From assembly GCA_001820175.1 (NCBI GenBank), contig MHOT01000001.1:1-50455 (forward strand): a DNA stretch of 50,455 bases. The letters are read 5' to 3'. Shown here one piece after another: positions 7,496-50,455 of the stretch (its first letter is position 1; the number at the start of each line of letters is the position of its first letter). This DNA is from Candidatus Staskawiczbacteria bacterium RIFCSPHIGHO2_02_FULL_42_22. GTDB taxonomy: Bacteria > Patescibacteriota > Minisyncoccia > Minisyncoccales > Staskawiczbacteraceae. A program made the translations under genes and the position numbers. Below the pieces are notes generated by a model. It saw only the letters and a program-made list of their open reading frames with translations. It searched no databases and was not told where the DNA came from.

Positions 7496-7501
7496 AATTA
7501 T

Positions 7502-7778
7502 TAGACCTGTTGCGTATTAAGGATTGTCGCGAAAATTGAAGATTTTGGATCAGAAATTTGATAGAATTTTTCGGCTTGCCTCCAGGCCCGGAGATGGGGA
7601 AATTTGTTGCTACAAATTTACCCACATCTTGACCAAAAAATTATAATTTGCTAAGCGAGAGAGGAAAGGAAGAATCGCAATTATTCTTTTACAAGCGAGC
7701 GACAAATTATACTAGGTATAGCGAATTTATGGCCAAAATATGCAATTTGCAGCAAATCCTTAATACGCAACGGGTCTA
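7502..7778. mobile_element. MITE-like hairpin element with two nested hairpin inserts
   Basis: 23/24-bp terminal inverted repeat TAGACCTGTTGCGTATTAAGGATT; core matches 48492-48651. Confidence 0.8.
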
Positions 7779-7788
7779 TTACTTTGAA

Positions 7789-11785: not shown

Positions 11786-11979
11786 GTAACCCCTTCACAC
11801 CTCGTGCGCATTCCTGTCGTCATTGCGAGGAGCAGCGACCGCAATCGTGGACGACGTGGCAATCTAAACAAGAGTGACGATGGGATTGTCCCGATGGCTT
11901 TGTGCCATCGAGGATCCTCGATCTCATCGGGACTTCGTCACCCGCGTGCGCATCGCAATGACGGAGCGTGAGGGGTTAT
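11786..11979. repeat. Composite: GTAACCCC..CAC/GTGAGGGGTTA shell, REP 11818-11963, nested TCGAGGATCCTCGA module 11888-11933
   Basis: Three concentric inverted repeats visible in the sequence. Confidence 0.85.
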
Positions 11980-13146: not shown

Positions 13147-14753
13147 TTAACATTTTAAAAGATTTTACCGCGATAGTAACGGATAAAAAGAAAGAGCCGA
13201 TATGTTATGCGGTAATGGCGTCGGCGCTTTTATTTTGTATCATAGGGTTTTTTAATAAGGAATTGGCCGTCGGTTTTTTTGTACTTTTACTGTTAAGTGT
13301 TGTAACAATTTTTACCATATATGAAACTGGCATCAAAGATAAAGAAATATACGCCATTTTTTTAACGGCTCTTTTGGTTCACCTTGCCGCCGTCTTGTTT
13401 ATTTATTACAGGGGGTTTCGACCGTTTGGCGGAGGCGCGGACTTTGCTTTATATGATCAAATAGCCCGGGACATAGCTTACAGATTCAGTCACGGAAATT
13501 TTTCTTTAGATGGTTTATATACCGACCATTTTTTTCCCGTTGTAATCGGAATTTTATATATGTTGACATTTCCTAGCATGATTATCGGTCAGCTTTTTAC
13601 CGTTTGGCTAGCTGCATTTTCTGTTTTATTAACTTATTTAATAGTGCTTCAAATAGGTGGAACAAAAAAAATAGCCCTTTTGACGAGCATTATTATTACC
13701 ATGTATCCAAGTTATTTGTACTTTGGAAGCGTGTTATTAAAAGATACGGTAGTTGTTCCACTTGTTTTAGCGGGAATATTGCTTATTTTAAAAATGGGAA
13801 AAAATTTTTCTTGGGTAACATTTTCGATGTTTTTTATTGTTTTAACATGCTTGATTAATCTTCGTTTTTATATCGGCTATGCTCTTATGTTTAGTTTTAT
13901 TTTTTGCTGGCCATGGTTGTCTGTCTTGAGTGTCAAGAAAAGAATTATATATTGGTTTATTATAATCTTTTTAATAGGATTTTCTCCTCAAATTGCAAAT
14001 AACGGGTATTATGGATTTAGTAGTTTTAAAAGTTTGGCTAACCCAGAAAAGATAACGTATTATAGGGAGATTGTGTATAATAATCCATCGTTAAATCCTC
14101 AACCAATCACTCCTCAACCAACTACGCCAAAACCAACTATATCAAAACCAATTACACCTCCACCAAGCGCTCCGCAACCAACTACGCCAAAACCAACTAT
14201 ATCAAAACCAACTACACCTCCACCAAGCGCTCCGCAACCAACTACCTCTCAACCAACTACCTCTCAACCAAATCCTCTTCAGCAAGAGTTTAATGGGATC
14301 GGGTCAACTTTTGAATTAGAAACCGGATTTGGTAAAGGATTTATTACATTCTTCAAAAATTCTTCCCAATCTTTCTTATACAGTTTATTGGGTCCTTTCC
14401 CTTGGCAATTGCGATACCAAAGACAAATGATGGGTTTGGTGGAGACCATTCCATGGTACATATTAATAATTGTTTCCATGTACGGTTTTGCCAGATTTAT
14501 CAAAAGAAGGGGGATTTTAGAGTTTTTAAAATTTTACAAGTTTAGTTCTCCGTTGTTGTTGTTTGGCATTTTAGCGCTAGGGGCTTTGTCTTTGTATATA
14601 AATAATTACGGAATTATCACAAGAATTCGCATACCCATTTTTATTTGTTTCATTGCAGTAATGTTTATAAGTTTTAATGGTGACCTAGAAAAATTTTATA
14701 GAAACCACCTTCGTAATTTATATAAATTAATCACTCGGTCGGAGAATAAATAA
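13143..14753 (+). CDS. Polytopic membrane protein (Wzy/GT-C-like) with a Pro/Thr-rich repeat loop
   Basis: Many hydrophobic segments, LLKD and PFPW motifs, located in a glycan operon. Confidence 0.6.
   Translation: MINILKDFTAIVTDKKKEPICYAVMASALLFCIIGFFNKELAVGFFVLLLLSVVTIFTIYETGIKDKEIYAIFLTALLVHLAAVLFIYYRGFRPFGGGADFALYDQIARDIAYRFSHGNFSLDGLYTDHFFPVVIGILYMLTFPSMIIGQLFTVWLAAFSVLLTYLIVLQIGGTKKIALLTSIIITMYPSYLYFGSVLLKDTVVVPLVLAGILLILKMGKNFSWVTFSMFFIVLTCLINLRFYIGYALMFSFIFCWPWLSVLSVKKRIIYWFIIIFLIGFSPQIANNGYYGFSSFKSLANPEKITYYREIVYNNPSLNPQPITPQPTTPKPTISKPITPPPSAPQPTTPKPTISKPTTPPPSAPQPTTSQPTTSQPNPLQQEFNGIGSTFELETGFGKGFITFFKNSSQSFLYSLLGPFPWQLRYQRQMMGLVETIPWYILIIVSMYGFARFIKRRGILEFLKFYKFSSPLLLFGILALGALSLYINNYGIITRIRIPIFICFIAVMFISFNGDLEKFYRNHLRNLYKLITRSENK
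14097..14270 (+). repeat. Coding tandem repeat (60 bp x2 plus 15 bp x2)
   Basis: Encodes PQPTTPKPTISKP(I/T)TPPPSA x2, then QPTTS x2. Confidence 0.9.
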
Positions 14754-34884: not shown

Positions 34885-34896
34885 TAGTTTTTCCCT

Positions 34897-35010
34897 CGTC
34901 ATTGTGAGGGGGCGCGCCGCCGAAGCAATTTTCGATTATTAGCAAGATTGCCGCGTCGCCCCGCTTACGATCGGGGCTCCTCGCAATGACGGTGGGGGTG
35001 TGGGGGTTAC
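34897..35010. repeat. REP-like palindrome plus a GGGGTTAC arm
   Basis: CGTCATTGTGAG/CTCGCAATGACG at 34897-34991. Confidence 0.85.
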
Positions 35011-39998: not shown

Positions 39999-41381
39999 AT
40001 GTCTTCCAAATATTTCTTTTTTTTAACTCCGCTCAACAATATCATATTGGGGGCTTTTTGGTGGGTTTTATTAATGTTATTAGTGCTTTTTGTGCCGTTT
40101 TTACGGGTATGGTGGTGGGTGTTTTTCCCTCTATTTTTATCTATTGAATTACGGACACTCTATTTTTGGTGGCTGAATTGGGATTTTGCTTATGCTTCTC
40201 AAAAATGGGTGGTGCTTGAAATAATTCCTCCCAAGGAAGTGTTGGTGCCATTAAAAGCCATGGAAGATATTTTTACCATTATGTGGCCGGTGCTTTATGC
40301 TCCTCCCAATTGGCGGGAACGATGGTTTGAAGGGGCGTTGGCGGATCCCTTTGGCTGGATGTCTTGGGAAATGGCAAGCATTGAGGGGAAATTGCATTTT
40401 TACGTACGGGTGACGGCTTCACATCGGTCAAGCTTGGAGACCGCTCTGTACGGGCACTACCCGGAGCTGGAAATTACCGAAGTTCCCGATTACACCAAAA
40501 ACGTTCCGCAAAATCTTCCCAATGAGGAATGGAACACCTATGGGGAAGATTTTATTTTAGGCAAACCCGCGCCCTATCCCATTCGGACCTACGAAAAGTT
40601 TTTCGAACCCCAGGGTGAAAAAATTTCGGCCGAAGAAAAAAGAATCGATCCCCTTTCTTCATTGCTTGAACTGATGTCAAAATTAGGGCCGGGTGAGCAA
40701 TTCTGGCTGCAATTTATCACCATGTCATCCGTTGAGCTCGGGTTCATAAAAGAAGCGAAACAATTAATTGAAGAGTTATCCAAGCGTCCGGTAAAAAAAG
40801 TAAATACGTTTTGGGAAGAAATTATGCAAATGGCTTTCCATTTAATCTACGGCCCCAAAAAAGAGGGTTCGGGGGAAAAAGCAACCTGGAAATGGCTTGA
40901 ATCAACCAAAACCGAAGAGGGTGAAAAGGAATTATTGCTTACCCCCGGAGAAAAAGAAATTCTCGTAGAAATTGAAAATAAATTAAAGCGGCCCATATTC
41001 AGAACCGTTATCAGGGGGGTGTATGTTGCCCGCCGAGAGAATTTTAGTTCGTCCAATAGGATCCTTACTCGGGCATATTTTTCTCATTTTCAAACTACGA
41101 ATTTAAATCATATCAGGTTTACAGTCACAACTCGTCCTAAGACCCATTATTTTTTCCGCAAAAGCATTCCCTTTGTGCGGTCAAGGAAAATGTTCAGAAA
41201 CTATATTTTAAGGTTTACCCCGTTATTTCCCGATCTAAAAAAAGAGTGCCCCCTGCTTTCCACTGAAGAATTGGCGACTTTGTTTCACTTCCCATTGAAA
41301 ATTACGGGTCTGGTGGCTCCTACCATGGCGCGGGTTGAGTCAAAGAAGGGAGGCCCACCACCAAATCTTCCTACGGAATAA
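39999..41381 (+). CDS. Membrane-anchored protein associated with the VirD4-like ATPase
   Basis: N-terminal transmembrane segments, LEIIPP, EELATLFHFP, C-terminal PPPNLP. Confidence 0.7.
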   Translation: MSSKYFFFLTPLNNIILGAFWWVLLMLLVLFVPFLRVWWWVFFPLFLSIELRTLYFWWLNWDFAYASQKWVVLEIIPPKEVLVPLKAMEDIFTIMWPVLYAPPNWRERWFEGALADPFGWMSWEMASIEGKLHFYVRVTASHRSSLETALYGHYPELEITEVPDYTKNVPQNLPNEEWNTYGEDFILGKPAPYPIRTYEKFFEPQGEKISAEEKRIDPLSSLLELMSKLGPGEQFWLQFITMSSVELGFIKEAKQLIEELSKRPVKKVNTFWEEIMQMAFHLIYGPKKEGSGEKATWKWLESTKTEEGEKELLLTPGEKEILVEIENKLKRPIFRTVIRGVYVARRENFSSSNRILTRAYFSHFQTTNLNHIRFTVTTRPKTHYFFRKSIPFVRSRKMFRNYILRFTPLFPDLKKECPLLSTEELATLFHFPLKITGLVAPTMARVESKKGGPPPNLPTE

Positions 41382-41445
41382 AATTCTAAAATCTAAACTC
41401 TAAATCCTAAACCGTTTAGAATTTAGAGTTTAGTATTTAGAGTTT
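41381..41445. repeat. Inverted heptamer array
   Basis: CTAAA x4 facing TTTAG x4; centre AAACCGTTT. Confidence 0.8.
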
Positions 41446-41466
41446 CTTTTGTAAAACAAAAGTATT

Positions 41467-43425
41467 ATGGATAACAAAAAAGTAACATTTTTTGGATTAA
41501 CTTCCTTTAGGAATCAACAAAAAAAGTTTGGCATCAAGCAGGATGATCGCCGGCGTCACTTTTATGCCATCGGAAAAACCGGTATGGGCAAGTCCAACCT
41601 CATGGAAAATATGGCCATTCAAGATATCCAAAATGGAAATGGTATTGCCTATGTCGATCCGCACGGGGAAGGCGCCGACAAGCTATTAGATTTTGTACCC
41701 GCTGAGCGCATCAAAGACGTGATTTTTTTAAATCCCGCCGATTTGGATTTTCCCATTGCCTTTAATGTCATGGAAAAGGTGGACTTTAAGTACCGGCACT
41801 TAGTGGCCGGCGGGCTGATGGGGGTGTTTAAAAAGGTCTGGCCGGATGTCTGGTCAGCCCGTATGGAATACATTTTAAACAACGTTATTTTGGCGCTTTT
41901 GGAATACCCCGATTCAACCCTTTTGGGAGTCAACCGCATGTTGGCGGACCCCGAATACCGCGCCAAGGTAGTGGCGGAAGTCAAAGACCCTATTATCCGG
42001 TCTTTCTGGGTGACTGAGTACGCCCGTTACACTCAGCGCTATGAAATAGAAGCCACGGCGGCTATTCAAAACAAAGTGGGGCAGTTTGTGTCCAATGCTT
42101 TGATCCGCAATATTATTGGACAGACAAAGTCCACCATTGATATGCGCCGCATTATGGATGAGCAAAAAATTCTCATTTTGGACTTATCAAAAGGCCGCAT
42201 CGGGGAAGATAATTCACGGCTATTAGGTGCGCTGCTTATTACCAAGATTCAGTTGGCGGCCATGTCGCGGGTGGATACTCCCGAACAAGAACGTAACGAC
42301 TTTTATTTATACGTTGATGAATTCCAGAACTTTGCCACCGAATCATTTGCCAATATTTTGTCCGAGGCCAGAAAATACCGATTGTGTTTGATTGTGGGGC
42401 ACCAGTATATCACCCAAATGGAAGAAGAAGTGCGCGATGCTATATTTGGAAACGTGGGAACGATGGCCGTTTTTCGGGTGGGCGCGGAAGACGCCGAATT
42501 TTTGGAAAAAGAATTTTCACCGGAGTTTATGGCAACGGATTTGGTAAACTTAAGCAAGTATAATATCTATTTAAAGTTAATGATTGATGGTGTGGCCAGT
42601 CACCCATTTTCGGCAAAAACATTGTCGCCGCCAGTGCCTTTAGAACAATCCAATCGAGATAAAATTATTGACGCTTCCCGCGAACGCTATGGAGTGGCGC
42701 GCGAAATTGTAGAAGATAAAATTATGCGCTGGACTGAAGGTGGTGGTGATGGCGCTTCTCAAAAAACTGAAACCAACAAAAGACCCGGCGTTTTTAGTGC
42801 CCCCAAATCAATGAGAAGCGAGGGGCGTCAAGACCATCAAAAAAACCAACAAGGCGACACCGAGCAAAAACTGTATGATGCCGTATGTTCTTTATGCAAC
42901 AAGCCGACAAAAATTATTTTTGAACCGATTGAAGGCCGCCCGGTGTATTGCAAATCATGCCTTAAAAAGATTAAAAAAGCTGCCGAAGAAAAAAATAACA
43001 TTGAGTATCCGCGTGTTTCCATGGGAGATTTCCAGCCAAAAAAAGGAGAACTGTCATCCGCGCCCTCAAGTAAAAGCACTGTAGAAAATATTCCTTTTCG
43101 CTTGTCTTCAAATAAGGGGTCCAGTCGGGCACCTGAAAATTCCCGTTCGCCAACGGCACCGGTCGGCGGCCAGAAGGGAGGGATACAACGTAAAGAAATT
43201 AATTTGTCGGAATTAAAAAAAGCCATTACTGATTCATTAGCCCACCAATCAAAGGATGTAACAGAAGAGGAAGAAGCAGATGATGCACCCGATGCACCAG
43301 CGGCGCTGCCAGAAAAACAATCTTTTGCAGAGGAAAATCCGGCGTCAAAATCGCCAAAATCACCACCGGCGCCAAAAGAAGAAAAAAATAAAATTATTAA
43401 TCCGGGTGGAAAAATTGGAATCTAG
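41467..43425 (+). CDS. VirD4/TraD-like coupling ATPase with a CxxC-x17-CxxC zinc-ribbon tail
   Basis: Walker A GKTGMGKS, DPHGE, Walker B YVDEFQ, SEARKY; CSLC-x17-CKSC. Confidence 0.88.
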   Translation: MDNKKVTFFGLTSFRNQQKKFGIKQDDRRRHFYAIGKTGMGKSNLMENMAIQDIQNGNGIAYVDPHGEGADKLLDFVPAERIKDVIFLNPADLDFPIAFNVMEKVDFKYRHLVAGGLMGVFKKVWPDVWSARMEYILNNVILALLEYPDSTLLGVNRMLADPEYRAKVVAEVKDPIIRSFWVTEYARYTQRYEIEATAAIQNKVGQFVSNALIRNIIGQTKSTIDMRRIMDEQKILILDLSKGRIGEDNSRLLGALLITKIQLAAMSRVDTPEQERNDFYLYVDEFQNFATESFANILSEARKYRLCLIVGHQYITQMEEEVRDAIFGNVGTMAVFRVGAEDAEFLEKEFSPEFMATDLVNLSKYNIYLKLMIDGVASHPFSAKTLSPPVPLEQSNRDKIIDASRERYGVAREIVEDKIMRWTEGGGDGASQKTETNKRPGVFSAPKSMRSEGRQDHQKNQQGDTEQKLYDAVCSLCNKPTKIIFEPIEGRPVYCKSCLKKIKKAAEEKNNIEYPRVSMGDFQPKKGELSSAPSSKSTVENIPFRLSSNKGSSRAPENSRSPTAPVGGQKGGIQRKEINLSELKKAITDSLAHQSKDVTEEEEADDAPDAPAALPEKQSFAEENPASKSPKSPPAPKEEKNKIINPGGKIGI

Positions 43426-43430
43426 TCCTC

Positions 43431-43581
43431 GTGACCCCTTGCATCTCACTTATTCATTCCCGTCATTGCGAGGAGGAGCGACCGCGGTCGGGACGACGCG
43501 GCAATCTCGTTTCATGTAATTAAGAGAGATTGCTTCGTCATCTGCGCCTTCCTCGCAATGACAAGAGGCGTGAGGGGTTAC
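43431..43581. repeat. GT(A/G)ACCCC shell plus REP 43461-43562
   Basis: First 52 bp of the REP differ at 1 nt from the copy at 49790. Confidence 0.88.
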
Positions 43582-43599
43582 TAGTTCTCTTGTAAAACC

Positions 43600-44637
43600 A
43601 TGAAATATCTTACTGATTTTGATGTGGAGAATAAAAGGGTGTTGGTGCGCTGCGATTTTAATGTGCCCCTTGATGATACGGGAAATATTTTAGACGACTT
43701 CAGGATTAAAAAAACGCTACCGACCTTACAATATTTGCTTTCAAAAAAAGCAAGAATAATATTAATGAGCCATTTAGGGGAGGCGGAAGGCAAGGTAGTG
43801 GAGGGCTTAAGGTTGGGGCCAATTAAAAATACACTGGAAGAATTATTGGGCCTTTCCATAAAAAAAACCACTGATTGTATCGGTCGCGAAACCAATGACC
43901 AGGTAATGCAACTTGCGGCAGGGGAAATTATACTGCTGGAAAACCTAAGGTTTCACAAAGAAGAAGCCGAAAATAATGCGGAATTTGCCAAAGAGCTTGC
44001 GGGGCTTGGCCAAGTATATATTAATGATGCTTTTTCGGTCTGCCACCGAAACCATGCTTCGGTGTCGGCCATTTGTCAATTTTTACCTTCCTTTGCCGGC
44101 TTGCTACTGGCAGAAGAAATAAAAAACTTAACAAAAATTTTGGAGAATCCCTCGCGCCCGATGCTGGCAATAATTGGCGGAGCAAAAGTAAAAACGAAAG
44201 TAATGTTTATTGAAACATTTTCAAAAATAGCTGACACGGTTATCATTAATGGACTAATAAAAAAAGAAATACTGCAAGAAAACATACATCTTAAACATCC
44301 CGAAAAAATAATAAGCCAGATTGATCCGTCGCCCTCCCTTGACATCAGCCAAGAGAGCATTAATGTGTTTAAAGAAAAAATCATGGCAGCCAAAACGATC
44401 GTATGGAACGGCCCGTTCGGAAAATTTGAAGAAAAAAAGTATGAAACCGGTACGCTGGAAATTGCCAAGGCCATTATTAAAAGCCAGGCATTTTCGGTGG
44501 TAGGCGGGGGAGAGACCATTGAATTTTTACACAAAGAGGGTATACTCTCACAATTCAGCCACGTCTCCCTGGGCGGCGGGGCAATGCTAAGTTTCCTGGC
44601 CGGAGAACAGTTGCCGGGACTGGTGGCTTTGGGATAA
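43600..44637 (+). CDS. pgk: Phosphoglycerate kinase (short form)
   Basis: RCDFNVP, LENLRF, GGAK, WNGP.G.FE, GGGET, GGGA. Confidence 0.93.
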   Translation: MKYLTDFDVENKRVLVRCDFNVPLDDTGNILDDFRIKKTLPTLQYLLSKKARIILMSHLGEAEGKVVEGLRLGPIKNTLEELLGLSIKKTTDCIGRETNDQVMQLAAGEIILLENLRFHKEEAENNAEFAKELAGLGQVYINDAFSVCHRNHASVSAICQFLPSFAGLLLAEEIKNLTKILENPSRPMLAIIGGAKVKTKVMFIETFSKIADTVIINGLIKKEILQENIHLKHPEKIISQIDPSPSLDISQESINVFKEKIMAAKTIVWNGPFGKFEEKKYETGTLEIAKAIIKSQAFSVVGGGETIEFLHKEGILSQFSHVSLGGGAMLSFLAGEQLPGLVALG

Positions 44638-44641
44638 CATT

Positions 44642-45247
44642 ATGAAAGTTATTATCGCGCGCCATGCAAAAACCAATGAAAACGCCGGGGAAATCATCAT
44701 CGGCCAGGAATCAGAAGTCCTTTTAAATGAAGAGGGGGTTTTGCAAGCAAACAAATTGGCCGATTTTTTAAGAAAAGAAACCATTCGTGTTGCATACGTA
44801 AGCCCGCAGAAACGGGCAGTGCATACGGGAAGGGAAGTGCTTGCTAATCATCCTAAAGTTAAACTCATTCACGCGCCTCATTTAAAAGAACAGAATTTGG
44901 GGATTTATGAAGCGTTGGGAAAAGCTGAATGGAAAGAGATAAAAAAACAAGCCAAGGATCCATTTCATTTATTCAAGCCACCCCAGGGCGAATCGTATTT
45001 AGAATTACAAAAAAGGGCAAGGGTTTTTTTTGATTATTTAATGGAATTCCACGAACATGACACGGTTTTTATGGTCAGCCACGGAGGAACGTTGGGCGTA
45101 TTATATTTGGATTTGTTTGGCAAGGAGCTGACTGAAGAAAATTATAGAGCCCACAAGCCGGAAAATACCGCGGTAACTATTTTGGAGATTTCCAAAAACA
45201 GCCCCATAAAGGTACACAAGCTAAATAGCTTAGAGCATCTTGATTAG
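44642..45247 (+). CDS. Histidine phosphatase / phosphoglycerate mutase family protein
   Basis: ARHAKT (RHG variant), SP.KRA..T, GES, VSHGG. Confidence 0.88.
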   Translation: MKVIIARHAKTNENAGEIIIGQESEVLLNEEGVLQANKLADFLRKETIRVAYVSPQKRAVHTGREVLANHPKVKLIHAPHLKEQNLGIYEALGKAEWKEIKKQAKDPFHLFKPPQGESYLELQKRARVFFDYLMEFHEHDTVFMVSHGGTLGVLYLDLFGKELTEENYRAHKPENTAVTILEISKNSPIKVHKLNSLEHLD

Positions 45248-45261
45248 TTACACTTTGGGCA

Positions 45262-45402
45262 CTTGGTGTTGGTGATATTGTTGAATTTTTAGAAAAAGAA
45301 GGTATGCTTTCACAATTCAGCCGCGTTTCTATTGGCAGAGGAGCGATGTTAAGTTTTTTGGCAGGCGAAGAGTTACCGGTGTTAAAAGCATTAGAAAAAT
45401 AA
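45262..45402 (+). pseudogene. Degenerate duplicate of the pgk 3' end
   Basis: Translates to GVGDIVEFLEKEGMLSQFSRVSIGRGAMLSFLAGEELPVLKALEK*. Confidence 0.85.
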
Positions 45403-45417
45403 TCAATTTTCAAGTTT

Positions 45418-45453
45418 AACTATTCGCTTGTTCGTACGAATAAGCGAATAGTT
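45418..45453. repeat. CGAATA-type palindrome
   Basis: AACTATTCGCTTGTTCG/CGAATAAGCGAATAGTT. Confidence 0.7.
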
Positions 45454-45463
45454 TGTAAAAAAT

Positions 45464-46415
45464 ATGCCAGGAGAACTGCCATCAAGCGAAAATCCAAAAG
45501 AAGAATTACAGCCAGATTTTTTATTGCCAGATCAACAGCCATCAATAGAAGAACGAGAGGGTAAAGAATATAACTTTGATATAATGAATAAAGCAGAGGT
45601 TTCAATGGCTCGCTTAGTCAAGAAATTAAAAAATAACATTGAAGATGGAGATTACAGCGCCCTACTGAGCGATGATACGGGCGGTAGAATTCCAACATTA
45701 GTTTTAAGGAAAATAATGTTGGAAAAGGGGCCGAATAAAAATATAAAGACATATTTTTTGTCGGCCGGATTGGGTAATACTCCCATGAAATTTATGGATG
45801 ATCGTTCGGAAAAAAGAAAATATCAAAAAATGATAACATACCTTAAAAATATGGATTTTGGAGATAAAAAGTTATTGGTTGTTACGGAATATATGAGCAT
45901 GGGCAATACTTTGGATGGTATAGGCGAAGCATTAAAAGACATTGGGGCAAATTTTGATTTTGCCATACAATCTACTAATGAAGATTATGATAAAGTAGAT
46001 AGGTTGACGGATGCTTTTTATGGTGAATTTAATGCAGAATCTTTTGTTGGAATAAATAAACCTATTCAATACGATAATTCTTTAATGGGAGTGTTAAAAA
46101 GAGGAGAGGATAGAGGAAGATATTCTCCCATACCAGAAACTATTATAAAGCATGTAAAAAATGAAGGAAGAGAATTGTCGGAAGAGGATATTAATAAAAT
46201 TTTTGGTATAAATTCATGGGACGACGTTTTTACAAGGGTGCATAAAAAAAGATCCAGAATTGCTAAAAAAATACAACAAAGTGAAGATGGGGCCACTAAC
46301 AAAAAAAGAAAAAAATGAAATTCAAAGGAATATAAATTTAGCAAGGGAGGATGTGAGTTTAATGATTGAAAGAATTATTGAACAGGTTTGGCCAAAAGAA
46401 GATATAGAAAAATAA
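45464..46415 (+). CDS. Hypothetical protein with a PRTase-like motif, probably frameshifted at the A7 run 46244-46250
   Basis: LLVVTEYMSMG.T motif; an alternate frame from 46251 stays open to TAA 46415. Confidence 0.55.
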
Positions 46416-46417
46416 CT

Positions 46418-46590
46418 ATGGAATTAATCAGGGATTTTAAAAAACTCAATAAACACGATGCCGTCATTGCCGGCGGCAAAGGCACTTCTCTTTTTTTGGG
46501 GGGGCGAAAATCGCCATAGATGTCATAAAAACAGGTGATGTGGTAGAGTTAGGTGCGGATAACGGTATAATTAAGATTATAAAATGGTAA
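46418..46590 (+). pseudogene. Collapsed PEP synthase/PEP-utilizing enzyme remnant
   Basis: MELIRDFKKLNKHDAVIAGGKGTSL joined out of frame to KIAIDVIKTGDVVELGADNGIIKII. Confidence 0.65.
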
Positions 46591-46733
46591 CTGCTCACTG
46601 AACATGAAAAATAGGATCAATTACCTTTTTCCGTCATTGCGAGCCGCCCGCAGGCGGCGTGGCAATCCAGTAGTTTTACGTAAAGATTGCTTCGGCGCTC
46701 CTCGCAATGACGATTTGGCCAGTGAGCAGTTAC
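46587..46733. repeat. GTAACTGCTCACTG shell plus REP 46632-46712
   Basis: Perfect 14-bp outer inverted repeat. Confidence 0.88.
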
Positions 46734-47052
46734 AAAAAAAGAATTGAAAAGAATCACTGTTGGGGAAGCGGTAGAAGAAAAGGGAAATATGGATGTTGAA
46801 ATGACGATTGACGCGCTGCATAATTTAGTCAAGTATCACACCGCAGTATTCTTTACAGGGGACAGTGATTTTTTGGCATTAGTGGTTTATCTGAAAAATC
46901 AAAATAAAAAAGTGTATATTTTTTCTTCACGAAATAATATCTCGCAGGAATTACGAACGGGCGCGGATGGCTACACGGATATTTTAGGTATCAATGAAAT
47001 GTGGGGCAGAGAACTAAAGCACAAAGAGGAATTACCTAAGCAAAGTAGATAA
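46729..47052 (+). pseudogene. C-terminal half of a NYN/LabA (PIN-like) nuclease
   Basis: KGNMDVEMTID, TGDSDF, S.ELR..AD; the N-terminal motif is missing and the frame begins at the repeat edge. Confidence 0.8.
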
Positions 47053-47123
47053 AAAAACAACCCTCCTTGCGGAGGGTTGCCCTTGGATGTAATACCCTTT
47101 TAGTTTTGGAAAACTAAAAGACA
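47051..47123 (-). ncRNA. Candidate small RNA convergent with the NYN gene
   Basis: Minus-strand promoter, 10-bp stem, and a GCAA-loop terminator with its U7 on the minus strand; no ORF. Confidence 0.55.
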
Positions 47124-47128
47124 CCCTG

Positions 47129-47157
47129 ATTGTATTCTAATTACATATGTATGTCAA
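47129..47157 (-). promoter_or_regulatory. Near-consensus sigma70 promoter, antisense orientation
   Basis: Minus strand TTGACA-17 bp-TACAAT. Confidence 0.7.
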
Positions 47158-48386
47158 TAGTCAAAAATAAAATCAAAAACTTAGAAAACGTGGCCGGGAG
47201 GATCAAAAAAGCCGTTTACGATAACGGGCGTATTATTATTTACGGTGATTCGGATATGGATGGTATTGCATCATCAGTTATTTTACAGGAAGCCATAAAA
47301 AACTTAGGGGGTGGGGTGGGCATGGTGTTGTTTCCTAATCGGGAAGAGGATGGTTACGGTATTAATTTTCGGGCCATTGAATATGTTCGCGATAAGGCAC
47401 CCGCCTTCGCCAAAGGCTTCGGCCCACTTCGCCATAGCTCCAGCGAGGCGAGCGAGGCAAGGCCCGCGCTTTTTATTACCCTGGATTTGGGGATTACCAA
47501 TATTAAAGAAGTAGATGCTTTAAACGCGCTAGGGTTTAGTGTTATCATTATTGATCATCATCAAATTTTAAACGGTTTGCCGGCGGCGGAAATTATCATT
47601 GATCCAAAACAAGAAGGCGATGATTCCAATTCAACTCATTTGGCTAACGTTGGAATTACATTTTTGTTGGCACAAGAATTGTTGGGAGGCCAAATGTCTA
47701 TGCAATTGAAGAATAGTTTTTTGGAGCTTACGGCGTTGGCCACTATTTCGGACATGGTGCCGCAAATCGAAGAAAATAAAATGTTTATTGAAGAGGGCTT
47801 GCGGTCCCTAAAAAACACCTTTCGGCCCGGCCTTCGGGCATTTTTAGATATTTTGGGCGAAGGCACCGTGTTGTCGGATGGGCTATATAAAGTAATTTCG
47901 GCGCTGAATGCGGCCGAGTCCATTGATTTTAAAAATGAATCGTATCAATTATTAACCACCGCTTCGGCTACGGAGGCCCGCGATTTGGCAGAAAAACTGA
48001 TCGGCAAGACCAATTATAAGCAGCAAAAAATTAAAGAAGCGGTGGATGAAGTTGAACGCAGGATTTCGCAAAACCCCGATGCGTCGATTATTTTTGAAGG
48101 GGATCCGGCTTGGAAGTTAACCTTGGCAGGTCCCATTGCATCTATTATTGCCCAAAAATACCAAAAACCAACCTTTATTTTTAAAAAAGGCGACAGTGAG
48201 TCATGCGGCTCAGTGCGGAGTTTGGTTGAAGGTGAGGACTCGGTCCAAGCCATGAAAACCTGCGCCGATATATTAGTTACGTATGGGGGGCACGCCAAGG
48301 CCTCGGGGTTTCGGATAAAAAATGGGAACCTTGAAAGATTTAAAAAAGCCCTAAGTGAACATTTTAAAAATATTAATTCAAGGTAA
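47151..48386 (+). CDS. recJ: ssDNA exonuclease RecJ (DHH family) with a 21-aa in-frame repeat insert
   Basis: GDSDMDG, GYG, IDHH, TISD, GS.RS, GGH..ASG. Confidence 0.88.
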   Translation: MSIVKNKIKNLENVAGRIKKAVYDNGRIIIYGDSDMDGIASSVILQEAIKNLGGGVGMVLFPNREEDGYGINFRAIEYVRDKAPAFAKGFGPLRHSSSEASEARPALFITLDLGITNIKEVDALNALGFSVIIIDHHQILNGLPAAEIIIDPKQEGDDSNSTHLANVGITFLLAQELLGGQMSMQLKNSFLELTALATISDMVPQIEENKMFIEEGLRSLKNTFRPGLRAFLDILGEGTVLSDGLYKVISALNAAESIDFKNESYQLLTTASATEARDLAEKLIGKTNYKQQKIKEAVDEVERRISQNPDASIIFEGDPAWKLTLAGPIASIIAQKYQKPTFIFKKGDSESCGSVRSLVEGEDSVQAMKTCADILVTYGGHAKASGFRIKNGNLERFKKALSEHFKNINSR

Positions 48387-48395
48387 TTGCAAATA

Positions 48396-48672
48396 GGACT
48401 TACGCGTTTGCGTCATTGCGAGCCGCAGCGAAGCAATCTTAATACGTAGATTGCCACGCCGCGCCCCGCGGGGCGCGGCTCGCAATGACACTAGACCTGT
48501 CCCTAAATAAGATTTGTTACGAAAATTACAGATTTTGAGCTAGAAATTTGATAGAATTTTTCGGCTTGCCCATAGGCCCGTCGAAAAATTCTAGCAAATT
48601 TGTAGCCAAAATATGCAATTTGCAGTAAAATCTTATTTAGGGACAGGTCTACTGACGCAAACGCGTAAATCC
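48396..48672. repeat. Composite: GGACTTACGCGTTTGCGTCA shell, REP 48411-48489, TAGACC element 48492-48651
   Basis: 19/20-bp outer inverted repeat; inner perfect 24-bp inverted repeat. Confidence 0.88.
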
Positions 48673-48686
48673 CAACAAAAATAACC

Positions 48687-49733
48687 ATGATTCTTAATCA
48701 AAAAATATATACGGTGGAAAGTGTAACTTCGGGGCATCCCGATAAAGTGTGCGACCAAATTTCAGATGCTATTTTAGATGCGTGTTTGGCCGAAGATCCC
48801 AATTCGAAAGTGGCAGTTGAATCGTTTGGCGGCCACGGGCTTTTGGTGGTCGGTGGCGAAGTGACTACCTTGGCAAGGGTAAATTATGAACAAGTAGCCA
48901 AAAACGTCTATAAAAATATTGGATACGACCAGAACTTAAACATGATCGTAAATATTGCAGAGCAATCGCCCGATATTGCTATGGGTGTAAATACCGGCGG
49001 CGCGGGCGACCAGGGGATTATGTATGGATTCGCGTGTGACCAGACACCAGAATTTCTTCCGTGGGCAATTGTAAAAGTGCATGCGTTGGCAAAAGGGCTG
49101 GAAGTACTGCGAAAAACAGGTGCTATTACGTGGCTGAAACCAGATGGTAAAACACAAATAACCATGGATCATGGAAAAGTAAGAACCGTGCTGGTAAGTG
49201 CCCAGCACGACGTTGGTGTTTTGCAAGATGAAATAAAACGGGTGCTGACAGAAAAATTAATCAAACCGATTATTGGCGATGTGACTGGTGTTGAAATTTT
49301 AGTAAACCCTACCGGTAAATTTATCCAGGGCGGATTTGAAGCTGATACGGGTTTGACGGGGCGCAAAATCATGGTAGATACTTATTGTGGTTTGGTATTT
49401 CATGGCGGCGGATGTTTTTCTGGTAAAGATGCCAGTAAGGTTGATAGGTCCGGTGCGTATATGGCTCGATTTGTTGCTAAAAATTTGGTGGCATCGGGTC
49501 GCGCCAAGGAATGCCTGGTTTCGGTGGCCTATGCTATTGGGAAGGTGGAACCATTAATGGTGCAAGCCATCAATGAAAAGGGCGAAGATTTGAGCGCATT
49601 AGCAATTGAGAAATTTGATTTTCGTCCGCAAGCCATCATTGAAGCGCTTAACCTTAAAAAACCCATCTATCAACAAACTGCCGCCTACGGACACTTTGGA
49701 AAAGCCGGTTTGCCTTGGGAGGATATCATATAA
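48687..49733 (+). CDS. metK: S-adenosylmethionine synthetase
   Basis: ESVT.GHPDK.CDQISD, GAGDQG, GLTGRKI, GGGCFSGKD. Confidence 0.96.
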   Translation: MILNQKIYTVESVTSGHPDKVCDQISDAILDACLAEDPNSKVAVESFGGHGLLVVGGEVTTLARVNYEQVAKNVYKNIGYDQNLNMIVNIAEQSPDIAMGVNTGGAGDQGIMYGFACDQTPEFLPWAIVKVHALAKGLEVLRKTGAITWLKPDGKTQITMDHGKVRTVLVSAQHDVGVLQDEIKRVLTEKLIKPIIGDVTGVEILVNPTGKFIQGGFEADTGLTGRKIMVDTYCGLVFHGGGCFSGKDASKVDRSGAYMARFVAKNLVASGRAKECLVSVAYAIGKVEPLMVQAINEKGEDLSALAIEKFDFRPQAIIEALNLKKPIYQQTAAYGHFGKAGLPWEDII

Positions 49734-49751
49734 CTCACCTTACATCCCTTT

Positions 49752-49884
49752 GTCATTGCGAGGAGCCGTAACCCCTCACCCCCACTCACCGTCATTGCGA
49801 GGAGGAGCGACCGCAGTCGGGACGACGCGGCAATCTCGTTTTATTCAATTGAGTGGGATTGCTTCGCTGTGGCTCGCAATGACG
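49752..49884. repeat. Truncated REP arm, GTAACCCCTCAC arm, and full REP 49790-49884
   Basis: Two GTCATTGCGAGGAG starts and one CTCGCAATGACG end. Confidence 0.85.
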
Positions 49885-49903
49885 AAAGAGAAATCTTATC
49901 ACT

Positions 49904-50347
49904 ATGAAAAAAATAACTATTTATACCGACGGGGGGTCGCGTGGGAACCCAGGTAAGGCCGCTATTGGGGTGGTTTTTTGCAACGAAATGGGCCAGGAAA
50001 TTAAAAAATTCGGGGAATATTTGGGGGACAACCTTACCAATAACGAAGCCGAGTACCATGCGGTGATTTTTGCGTTAAAAAAGTTTAAAGCGGTTTTTGG
50101 AAAAGCAGTGGCGGAAGTTGCCGAAGTGGAAATCCGCAGTGATTCTGAATTATTGGTTCGCCAAATGAGCGGAAAGTATAAAGTAGAAAACGAAAAAATA
50201 CAAAAGTTTTTTATGGAAATCTGGAATTTAAAAATCGATTTTCATGAAGTAAAATTCAAGGCAATTCCCCGCGAAAAAAACAAAGAGGCCGATGCGTTGG
50301 TAAACCAGGCATTAGATGCGAACGCATCGCACCAAACGCTTTTATAG
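49904..50347 (+). CDS. rnhA: Ribonuclease HI family protein
   Basis: TDGGSRGNPG, TNNEAEY, DSEL, REKN.EAD. Confidence 0.9.
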   Translation: MKKITIYTDGGSRGNPGKAAIGVVFCNEMGQEIKKFGEYLGDNLTNNEAEYHAVIFALKKFKAVFGKAVAEVAEVEIRSDSELLVRQMSGKYKVENEKIQKFFMEIWNLKIDFHEVKFKAIPREKNKEADALVNQALDANASHQTLL

Positions 50348-50377
50348 GGGTAATTCAAACCGGCTTTGTTGAATAAT

Positions 50378-50415
50378 TCATGAACACGAAGATAATTCTC
50401 CTTTCGCGTTCATGA
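50378..50415. repeat. Short hairpin
   Basis: TCATGAACACGAA/TTCGCGTTCATGA. Confidence 0.5.
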
Positions 50416-50455
50416 TCTATGCAACAACGTAGGATTGAGGCATTCCCAGGGTATT

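Follow-up and report, generated by a model that had tools for sequence, protein, structure and literature searches.

A 50,455-nucleotide (nt) stretch of DNA from Candidatus Staskawiczbacteria bacterium RIFCSPHIGHO2_02_FULL_42_22 (contig MHOT01000001.1, positions 1 to 50,455 of the forward strand; hereafter the window) carries near its right end the 3′ part of a gene for a LabA-like NYN nuclease, and this part is faced on the minus strand by a compact unit with promoter, hairpin and terminator signals. The locus raises the question of whether the unit is a gene for a small RNA, whether such an RNA belongs to the nuclease, and what it might do there. To our knowledge, almost nothing is known about the small RNAs of the Candidate Phyla Radiation (CPR). 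The initial annotation of the locus had proposed a separate minus-strand small RNA dedicated to NYN, and this is supported by conservation in 80/80 related loci, by covariation in the stems and by the shared presence and absence of RNA and protein across genomes. On these comparative grounds, one accessory subfamily of LabA-like NYN (PIN-like) nucleases, found in Patescibacteria, has the RNA as its constant partner.

A minus-strand RNA gene behind the NYN gene

Judged from its sequence and its relatives, the minus strand from 47157 to 47051 is a real, self-contained noncoding RNA gene with its own promoter and intrinsic terminator (Table 1). The −35 hexamer, 17-bp spacer and −10 hexamer, the hairpin, the terminator and the U7 tract at the NYN stop codon had all been claimed before, and all of them are present in the sequence. 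The promoter scores 11/12 matches and is the best of the promoter-like sites found in a scan of 40000-50455. When the 81-nt minus strand was folded as RNA, its energy was −31.3 kcal/mol, compared with −15.2 ± 2.7 for 200 shuffled sequences (z = −6.0), none of which was as low. The covariance model for the RNA (R1) matches the window genome at 47048-47126 with 89.8 bits and an E value of 1.1e-19, and this is the sole copy there. Considering that the plus strand has no U tract past the hairpin, the terminator is expected to act on the minus strand only. One result runs counter to this anatomy: a simple terminator scan, which reported 16 sites, missed the hairpin at 47079-47058, where the stem and the U7 tract are plain in the sequence and in the fold. 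None of the 17 sequencing runs listed for this DNA is of RNA. Conservation in all 80 of the related loci described below shows that the unit in the window is no chance match.

Conservation and linkage to one NYN subfamily

Relatives were sought in a family set of 79 genomes and in a phylum set of 151 genomes drawn evenly, with the window's own genome counted in both. In a DNA search of the family set, five other genomes proved to carry both the NYN part and the intergenic unit; their NYN gene is full-length (185-196 residues), and similarity to the window ends, in all five, just past the −35 hexamer. Only one of these relatives (G028) adjoins a RecJ-like gene as the window does, so the unit travels with NYN and not with the RecJ-like gene. 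Using the full-length relative P0001, we retrieved a protein-anchored set of 80 loci (79 distinct sequences, 60-100% protein identity) from a collection of species-representative genomes; all of these loci come from Patescibacteria-type assemblies. Every one of the 80 loci has a full-length match to the covariance model, scoring 67 bits or higher, which lies directly after the NYN stop codon on the opposite strand; since the model was built from these same sequences, the count describes presence and is not an independent discovery. The antisense promoter and terminator, which the initial annotation had proposed to look for behind NYN homologues, are likewise conserved in 80/80 loci. The two facing genes, for the nuclease and for the RNA, form a cassette of about 0.75 kb.

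In whole-genome searches, the RNA and the NYN protein co-occur in the same 6/79 family genomes and, adjacent to each other, in the same 2/151 genomes of the phylum sample. Two further matches to the RNA in the family, at 27 bits and an E value of about 9e-4, are probably terminators. No copy of the RNA was found away from NYN or a NYN remnant in the genomes searched whole, and no such RNA lies behind the other NYN paralogues of the window genome (contigs C27, C7 and C10), either by eye or by the model. Judged by these searches, the module is rare, patchy and internally inseparable, and the partnership of RNA and NYN is strongly supported by comparative evidence. The summed contig depth over 47040-47113 was about 20 times that of the flanks in four groundwater and soil runs (X3, X4, X5 and X8), which indicates that many co-occurring organisms carry identical 31-mers of the RNA core.

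Phage records gave no tblastn match to the NYN protein, and the plasmid search returned only NYN proteins of alphaproteobacteria with about 30% identity. In viral contigs, the linker 15-mer of the RNA matched 92 stretches; 0/80 of those fetched are the RNA by model R1, and we regard them as chance 15-mer matches.

Structure of the RNA and constraint on its sequence

The RNA alignment (A1) holds 80 sequences, namely the window, the loci L013 and L014, and 77 of the 80 protein-anchored loci, with L039, the duplicate L081 and L100 left out. Across the two helices, 97.3% of 1680 cells are paired, and changes on both sides occur in 13/21 pairs (155 cells). No shuffle out of 500 reached any of the observed measures of pairing or covariation, and partners slid by 1-3 columns pair at only 39-63%. 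The 5′ hairpin (helix 1) is 95% paired with both-side changes in 6/10 pairs, and its loop is variable in length and sequence. The terminator (helix 2) is 99.3% paired with both-side changes in 7/11 pairs, and a U-rich tail follows in every row. G.U or U.G pairs fill 101/1440 cells of the 18 inner pairs and would be A.C mismatches on the plus strand; therefore, the structured RNA is assigned to the minus strand. A third helix, between the 5′ RUGU and the linker ACAU, fits 64-80 of the 80 sequences and exhibits no covariation, so that it is neither supported nor excluded.

The linker between the hairpins contains a core, ACAUC..G, that is invariant in the 80 sequences, and the window and genome G047 share the same RNA sequence without a difference, from the predicted 5′ end up to and including the U tract. 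In NYN, synonymous sites are saturated, with a proportion of synonymous differences (pS) of 0.63-0.78 among four genomes of the same genus and of up to 0.86 with G011 of another genus, and each conserved NYN residue uses all of its codons. The sole 7-nt site in NYN that is complementary to the RNA includes an Asp codon, for which 61 sequences have GAT and 15 have GAC. Elsewhere in the window genome, neither strand contains a match to the linker 18-mer with 3 or fewer mismatches. The target searches cover NYN and the assembled genome, which contains part of the 16S gene and no 23S gene. On contig C19 of genome G000 (44734-48314), the 16S ribosomal RNA gene matches in pieces with long gaps, as for intron-bearing 16S genes of CPR bacteria.

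No Rfam 15 family reached threshold in the window, where the best match below threshold was Phe_leader (27.7 bits, against 55), and none was found at the position of the RNA in 18 related loci. A weak match of the window to the DUF3800-I RNA (E value 2.5) was absent in 18 other loci and was rejected. In the openly accessible full-text literature, which leaves subscription journals and supplementary files out of reach, no RNA partner was found to be described for a bacterial NYN protein. Absent from Rfam and from the literature searched, the RNA together with NYN looks like an undescribed two-part system. The outcome is a defined RNA family with a covariance model, strong covariation, an invariant 9-nt core and a known protein partner.

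Promoters and DnaA boxes in relatives

Promoters were compared over 82 distinct segments placed by an anchor, which skipped 23 loci. At least 9/12 promoter matches at the expected distance were found in 74/82 segments, with TTGnnn kept in 77/82 and TAnnnT in 75/82. With up to 1 mismatch and both orientations allowed, 30/96 distinct promoters contain a DnaA box (TTATCCACA) at 43-60 nt before the predicted start, and two more promoters have a box further upstream, giving a total of 32/96. Perfect boxes number 18, and all of them lie at 43-60 nt (Table 1). By a hand calculation with equal base frequencies, chance would yield about 2.4 such sites and 0.1 perfect ones. This suggests that the RNA promoter may respond to the replication initiator DnaA in the loci that bear a box. 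In the window, no DnaA box was found upstream of the RNA promoter, and the RecJ-like coding sequence occupies that place.

The nuclease and its relation to known systems

The full-length relative P0001 matches the Pfam NYN family (PF01936) at profile positions 2-144 with an E value of 1.8e-22 and 80.9 bits. Proteins of the subfamily are soluble and 183-211 residues long. In a protein alignment of 45 rows (A2), D104, D127 and D129 are invariant and D10 is conserved in at least 90%; the window fragment is one of these rows, does not reach the D10 position and has an incomplete set of active-site acidic residues. The model of P0001, predicted with a mean local distance difference test score (pLDDT) of 89.4, has a PIN-like alpha/beta fold. 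Its best solved match is 2qip (E value 1.2e-10, template modelling (TM) score 0.80 on the target), followed by the NYN domain of MARF1 (6fdl/5yaa). The subfamily is thus similar to LabA-like NYN proteins such as VPA0982 of Vibrio parahaemolyticus (2qip) and MARF1 in terms of its profile, fold and acidic residues. In comparison with them, the cassette adds a dedicated small RNA gene, which none of the papers found in the literature searched describes beside such a protein, and the copy in the window comprises the C-terminal half of the protein only.

The arrangement of the cassette was compared with those of toxin-antitoxin systems. The type I pairs bsrG/SR4 and txpA/RatA of Bacillus subtilis have convergent, 3′-overlapping RNA antitoxins; the type I toxin is a small hydrophobic membrane peptide, and the antisense RNA binds the toxin mRNA. 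As in these pairs, the protein and RNA genes of the cassette are convergent and meet at their 3′ ends, and the RNA has a strong promoter of its own. Unlike them, the protein is a nuclease of about 190 residues, and the RNA stops at the stop codon with no coding overlap. The primary sequence of the RNA is also invariant, which pairing in cis as an antisense RNA does not require, and NYN holds no constrained pairing site. In type III systems (ToxIN, CptIN and TenpIN), an array of direct-repeat RNA lies upstream of, and is co-transcribed with, an endoribonuclease of the ToxN/AbiQ type. Under the mechanism that we favour below, the cassette would resemble them in that an endoribonuclease is neutralised by a bound, small structured RNA, whereas its RNA is a single unit on the opposite strand with its own promoter, and its nuclease has the NYN fold and not that of ToxN/AbiQ. 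VapBC is a type II toxin-antitoxin system with a PIN-domain toxin. The cassette shares with it a PIN-like RNase on a compact, horizontally spreading two-part module, but the partner is an RNA and not a protein antitoxin, and no small protein gene is conserved beside NYN.

In a search with PADLOC, the NYN protein gave weak matches to the NYN profile PDLC01154 (E value 1.5e-9) and to HEC-09 (6.8e-7). HEC-09 is described as an NYN-domain candidate defence gene embedded in Hma systems and carrying an extra N-terminal part that resembles a helix-turn-helix; the same preprint states that Type I restriction-modification systems often contain embedded genes (Payne et al., 10.1101/2024.01.29.577857). 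The cassette resembles HEC-09 in that a NYN nuclease is nested in a multi-gene defence system, as found in 9/79 loci within hsdM/hsdS or mod/res, and differs from it in having an RNA partner, none being mentioned for HEC-09 in the accessible part of that report (10.1101/2024.01.29.577857).

Genomic context of the cassette

When the flanking open reading frames (ORFs) of the 80 loci were clustered, no conserved neighbour protein emerged as a second partner. The regions upstream of NYN are unrelated to each other; in some, a −10-like hexamer stands within a few bases upstream of the ATG, and in others NYN comes directly behind another gene. We then compared the largest ORF on each side of 79 loci (149 proteins) with Pfam. 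As raw counts, families of restriction-modification or defence are neighbours in 22/79 loci, and the rest are housekeeping genes. Restriction-modification genes account for 18 of the 79 loci. The cassette is nested between hsdM and hsdS of a Type I system in six loci (L046, L058, L059, L061, L071 and L076) and between mod and res of a Type III system in three (L045, L049 and L069). The neighbours in the other four defence loci are AbiEii, Shedu SduA, Schlafen/AlbA and DUF3800. The nesting in restriction-modification systems was seen in several different CPR lineages. The cassette in the window is not embedded in a Type I or III restriction-modification system.

Uneven decay of the nuclease and the RNA

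An RNA-anchored set was collected by an exact match to the linker 15-mer. It matched 118 metagenome stretches, of which 80 were fetched; 28/80 are the RNA by the model, and the others are chance matches. Decay was tallied over the 23 true loci with at least 550 nt beyond the 3′ end of the RNA. The RNA is kept in all 23, and NYN is full-length in 16/23. In 5/23 loci NYN is clearly decayed or absent (Table 1), and in 2/23 it is probably broken, by a frameshift in L148 and by a missing N-terminus in L169. The promoters of six of these decayed loci score 9-11 of 12, with L183 unscored. An RNA that often outlives NYN is the pattern that a toxin-antidote pair predicts. In one of the protein-anchored loci, a second copy of the RNA (L039:235-313, 85 bits) lies behind an unrelated ORF, 1.8 kb from the NYN-linked copy on the same contig.

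A possible antitoxin-like role

On balance, we consider it only slightly more likely than not that the RNA restrains the nuclease as an antitoxin-like regulator of NYN, within the cassette of an accessory NYN subfamily. The RNA would hold NYN in check as an antitoxin would. In the form that we favour, the NYN protein would directly bind the invariant ACAUCCAAG stretch; alternatively, the RNA might pair with NYN transcripts that read through the one-way terminator. In the window, the recent cutting of NYN at residue 79 at a repeat element has left an orphan RNA gene that still looks functional. Direct recognition is favoured because a cis-antisense role would not fix the primary sequence, because the coding and upstream regions of NYN lack a conserved pairing target and because the genome contains no other complementary site. 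The patchy spread of the module, its defence-gene neighbours and its uneven decay are indirect signs of a toxin-antitoxin nature.

Several points weigh against this reading. We infer that NYN is toxic and that the RNA touches it, and likewise that the RNA is transcribed and where its ends lie. As for a pairing mechanism, no stretch of the NYN coding sequence has reduced synonymous variation, so that it holds no conserved target, and the regions upstream of NYN are not conserved and offer none either. Because of this, antisense control would need read-through of the terminator hairpin, which NYN transcripts would presumably achieve, considering the missing U tract on the plus strand. The opposite pattern of decay, an intact NYN with a damaged RNA, is found in 1/80 NYN-anchored loci (L100, where the 5′ arm of the first hairpin is lost), and the comparison of the two patterns joins two samples that were drawn differently and are small in number. 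Part of the uneven decay is expected in any case, since the NYN gene, at 570 nt, offers a target about five times the size of the RNA gene. The orphan copies, in L140 and the second in L039, could be equally compatible with a job of the RNA's own. The figures for restriction-modification neighbours carry no background comparison, and the module fails the defining features of both type I and type III toxin-antitoxin systems. Finally, the related NYN candidate HEC-09 gave no defence against the phages tested in E. coli (10.1101/2024.01.29.577857).

A further-reaching form of the antitoxin-like reading, which we put forward as a tentative proposal, is a new toxin-antitoxin or abortive-infection class. 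In this class, NYN would be silenced by a convergent RNA of about 73 nt through ACAUCCAAG, and a promoter with a DnaA box in about a third of the lineages would let the antidote track the replication status. Such a module would have spread among CPR bacteria, and its nesting in restriction-modification operons would provide a second line of defence. Should the RNA neutralise the nuclease, a PIN-like enzyme would join the RNA-controlled toxins, and this might explain a NYN candidate that gave no phage defence outside its native context.

Alternative explanations

We hold it rather unlikely that the RNA serves an ordinary cellular role together with NYN, whether in a functional ribonucleoprotein or as an enzyme-substrate pair, NYN being a non-toxic RNase and the RNA its cofactor, guide, decoy or processed substrate. 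The co-occurrence of the two and the invariant single strand fit such a pair as well as they fit an antitoxin, NYN is under strong purifying selection, with a ratio of nonsynonymous to synonymous substitution rates (dN/dS) of 0.04-0.075, and the DnaA boxes in 32/96 promoters suggest a tie to the replication status rather than to conflict. However, the rarity of the module (6/79 in the family and 2/151 in the phylum sample) fits an accessory element better than a housekeeping one, NYN is often lost where the RNA is kept, and the genome offers no guide target within 3 mismatches of the linker 18-mer.

We see a still smaller chance that the RNA acts alone, as a regulator in trans or as an insulator or antisense RNA against read-through, with NYN being a mere neighbour or the enzyme that turns the RNA over. 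Copies that lack NYN, namely those in L140, the second in L039 and those in decayed loci including the window, would be natural under this explanation. So would the one-way terminator, through which transcripts from the NYN side could read and pair with the RNA, and the overlap of the −35 hexamer with the RecJ-like start codon in the window. Against this, the whole-genome searches never place the RNA apart from NYN or a NYN remnant, the linker and its complement have no further match in the genome, and a pure antisense or insulator role would not require the sequence to stay invariant where synonymous sites are saturated.

Two further explanations are already contradicted by the comparative data. 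It is highly improbable that a chance promoter stands beside a two-way terminator serving NYN, or that the unit is a plus-strand leader of the RecJ-like gene. The region is A+T-rich and has 29 promoter-like sites where 22 are expected, and the hairpins, being palindromic, would form on the plus strand too; yet the promoter, spacing, hairpins and linker are conserved in 80/80 loci, the unit accompanies NYN and not the RecJ-like gene, the G.U pairs suit the minus strand only, and no U tract follows the hairpin on the plus strand. We give almost no credence to a small protein encoded by the 30-codon GTG frame at 47124-47032, which is among the listed ORFs and for which an R/TTG triplet stands at the predicted 5′ end in 62/80 sequences, because hairpin lengths, which are spread 36/25/19 modulo 3, preserve no reading frame, ATG, GTG or TTG is missing from the 5′ triplet in 18/80, in-frame stops occur in 49/80, the frame in the window crosses the terminator and has its stop past the U tract, and the substitutions compensate pairing and are not synonymous.

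The truncated copy in the window and its surroundings

The initial annotation had also described a nuclease truncated at its 5′ end at a repeat, beside an intact RNA unit, and this is borne out by the Pfam coverage, the alignment with relatives and the mapping of the repeat. The NYN ORF at 46744-47052 matches PF01936 with an E value of 2.3e-14 and 54.6 bits (cut-off 24.2), covering only positions 72-144 of the 145 in the profile. The fragment aligns to P0001 with 83% identity, and its similarity begins at 46729, at the right end of the repeat element. Considering that the copy begins at residue 79 and lacks D10, it is taken as a remnant and not as an active member. It contains no internal stop, and its dN/dS against intact relatives (0.04-0.075) is as among intact genes; therefore, the cut is recent relative to the divergence of these genomes. 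Across the 821-kb genome, the 13-nt termini of the repeat were located at 16 sites, and the CGTCATTGCGAG core is dispersed, with dozens of partial BLAST matches. Overlapping contigs of 4 DNA runs tile 46300-47400, including the junction, with 0 differences, so the truncation is not an artefact of one assembly. As a whole, the copy in the window is a relic, a dead nuclease gene plus an orphan, live-looking RNA gene, and for the window alone the outcome is modest, a decayed copy of which only the RNA gene survives.

Table 1. Coordinates of the RNA gene and other features of the window (nt positions), and related loci with a decayed NYN gene or a perfect DnaA box
Feature	Position or locus	Strand	Sequence or remark
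−35 hexamer	47157-47152	−	TTGACA, by sequence; overlaps the start codon of the RecJ-like gene on the + strand
Promoter spacer	Between −35 and −10	−	17 bp, by sequence
−10 hexamer	47134-47129	−	TACAAT, by sequence
5′ hairpin	47120-47097	−	CUUUUAGUUU-UCCA-AAACUAAAAG; perfect 10-bp stem, 4-nt loop
Single-stranded linker	47096-47080	−	GGGUAUUACAUCCAAGG, 17 nt; unpaired between the hairpins; core ACAUC..G
Terminator hairpin	47079-47058	−	CAACCCUCC-GCAA-GGAGGGUUG; 9-bp G+C-rich stem, GCAA loop
U7 tract of intrinsic terminator	47057-47051	−	Shares 2 nt with the NYN stop TAA (47050-47052)
Predicted small noncoding RNA	47051..47124	−	About 73 nt; 5′ end placed from the −10 hexamer, 3′ end in the U tract
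LabA-like NYN nuclease remnant, 5′-truncated	46729..47052	+	Residues 79-187 of full-length relatives; own start and first catalytic Asp (IDASN motif) lost
Dispersed repeat element, like a repetitive extragenic palindromic (REP) sequence or miniature inverted-repeat transposable element (MITE)	46587..46733		147 bp; terminal inverted repeats, CGTCATTGCGAG core; repeat families D6, D10, I2, I15 and I21
DHH/DHHA1 (RecJ-like) gene	47151..48386	+	Pfam DHH 3.4e-18, DHHA1 9.9e-07; neighbour outside the module
REP-like repeats	132-154, 11815-11847, 29336, 34894-34994, 35536, 43458-43537, 46621-46713, 48408-48440, 49751-49887		Core CGTCATTGCGAGG / CCTCGCAATGACG
Decayed NYN	L180		5′-truncated as in the window
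Decayed NYN	L140		NYN absent
Decayed NYN	L183		C-terminal half deleted
Decayed NYN	L109		Internal deletion
Decayed NYN	L125		About 35 residues left
Perfect DnaA box	L036, L044, L060, L062, L063, L065, L073, L078, L082, L090, L091, L097, L098, L114, L126, L135, L157, L180		TTATCCACA

On the other side of the RNA gene, the ATG of the RecJ-like gene (47151-47153) overlaps the −35 hexamer of the convergent RNA promoter, and likewise in the relative G028. Because of this overlap, the RecJ-like and small-RNA transcription units must be expected to interfere. The DHH domain of the RecJ-like gene is split by a G+C-rich in-frame insert at 47395-47470 (AFAKGFGPLRHSSSEASEARPA), and the DNA similarity to G028 ends just before it.

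The stretch from 45.2 to 46.7 kb, to the left of the repeat element, looks like a dump of broken genes. Among the pieces is a short frame (46419-46586) with no Pfam match, whose N-terminus presumably resembles that of phosphoenolpyruvate (PEP)-utilising enzymes. The phosphoglycerate kinase gene has its 3′ end repeated in a 129-nt copy (44489-44617 and 45251-45379, 73% identical), which is found 760 bp past the real gene on its downstream side. Palindromic REP-like repeats that share the core CGTCATTGCGAGG / CCTCGCAATGACG are dense across the window and the genome. Two copies of a foldback element with long inverted arms, about 80% identical and with no Rfam match, lie at 7496-7784 and 48489-48654, the second just upstream of a metK-like gene (48687-49733). 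At 14082-14276, a 15-nt tandem repeat with at least 10 copies encodes a segment rich in proline, threonine and glutamine.

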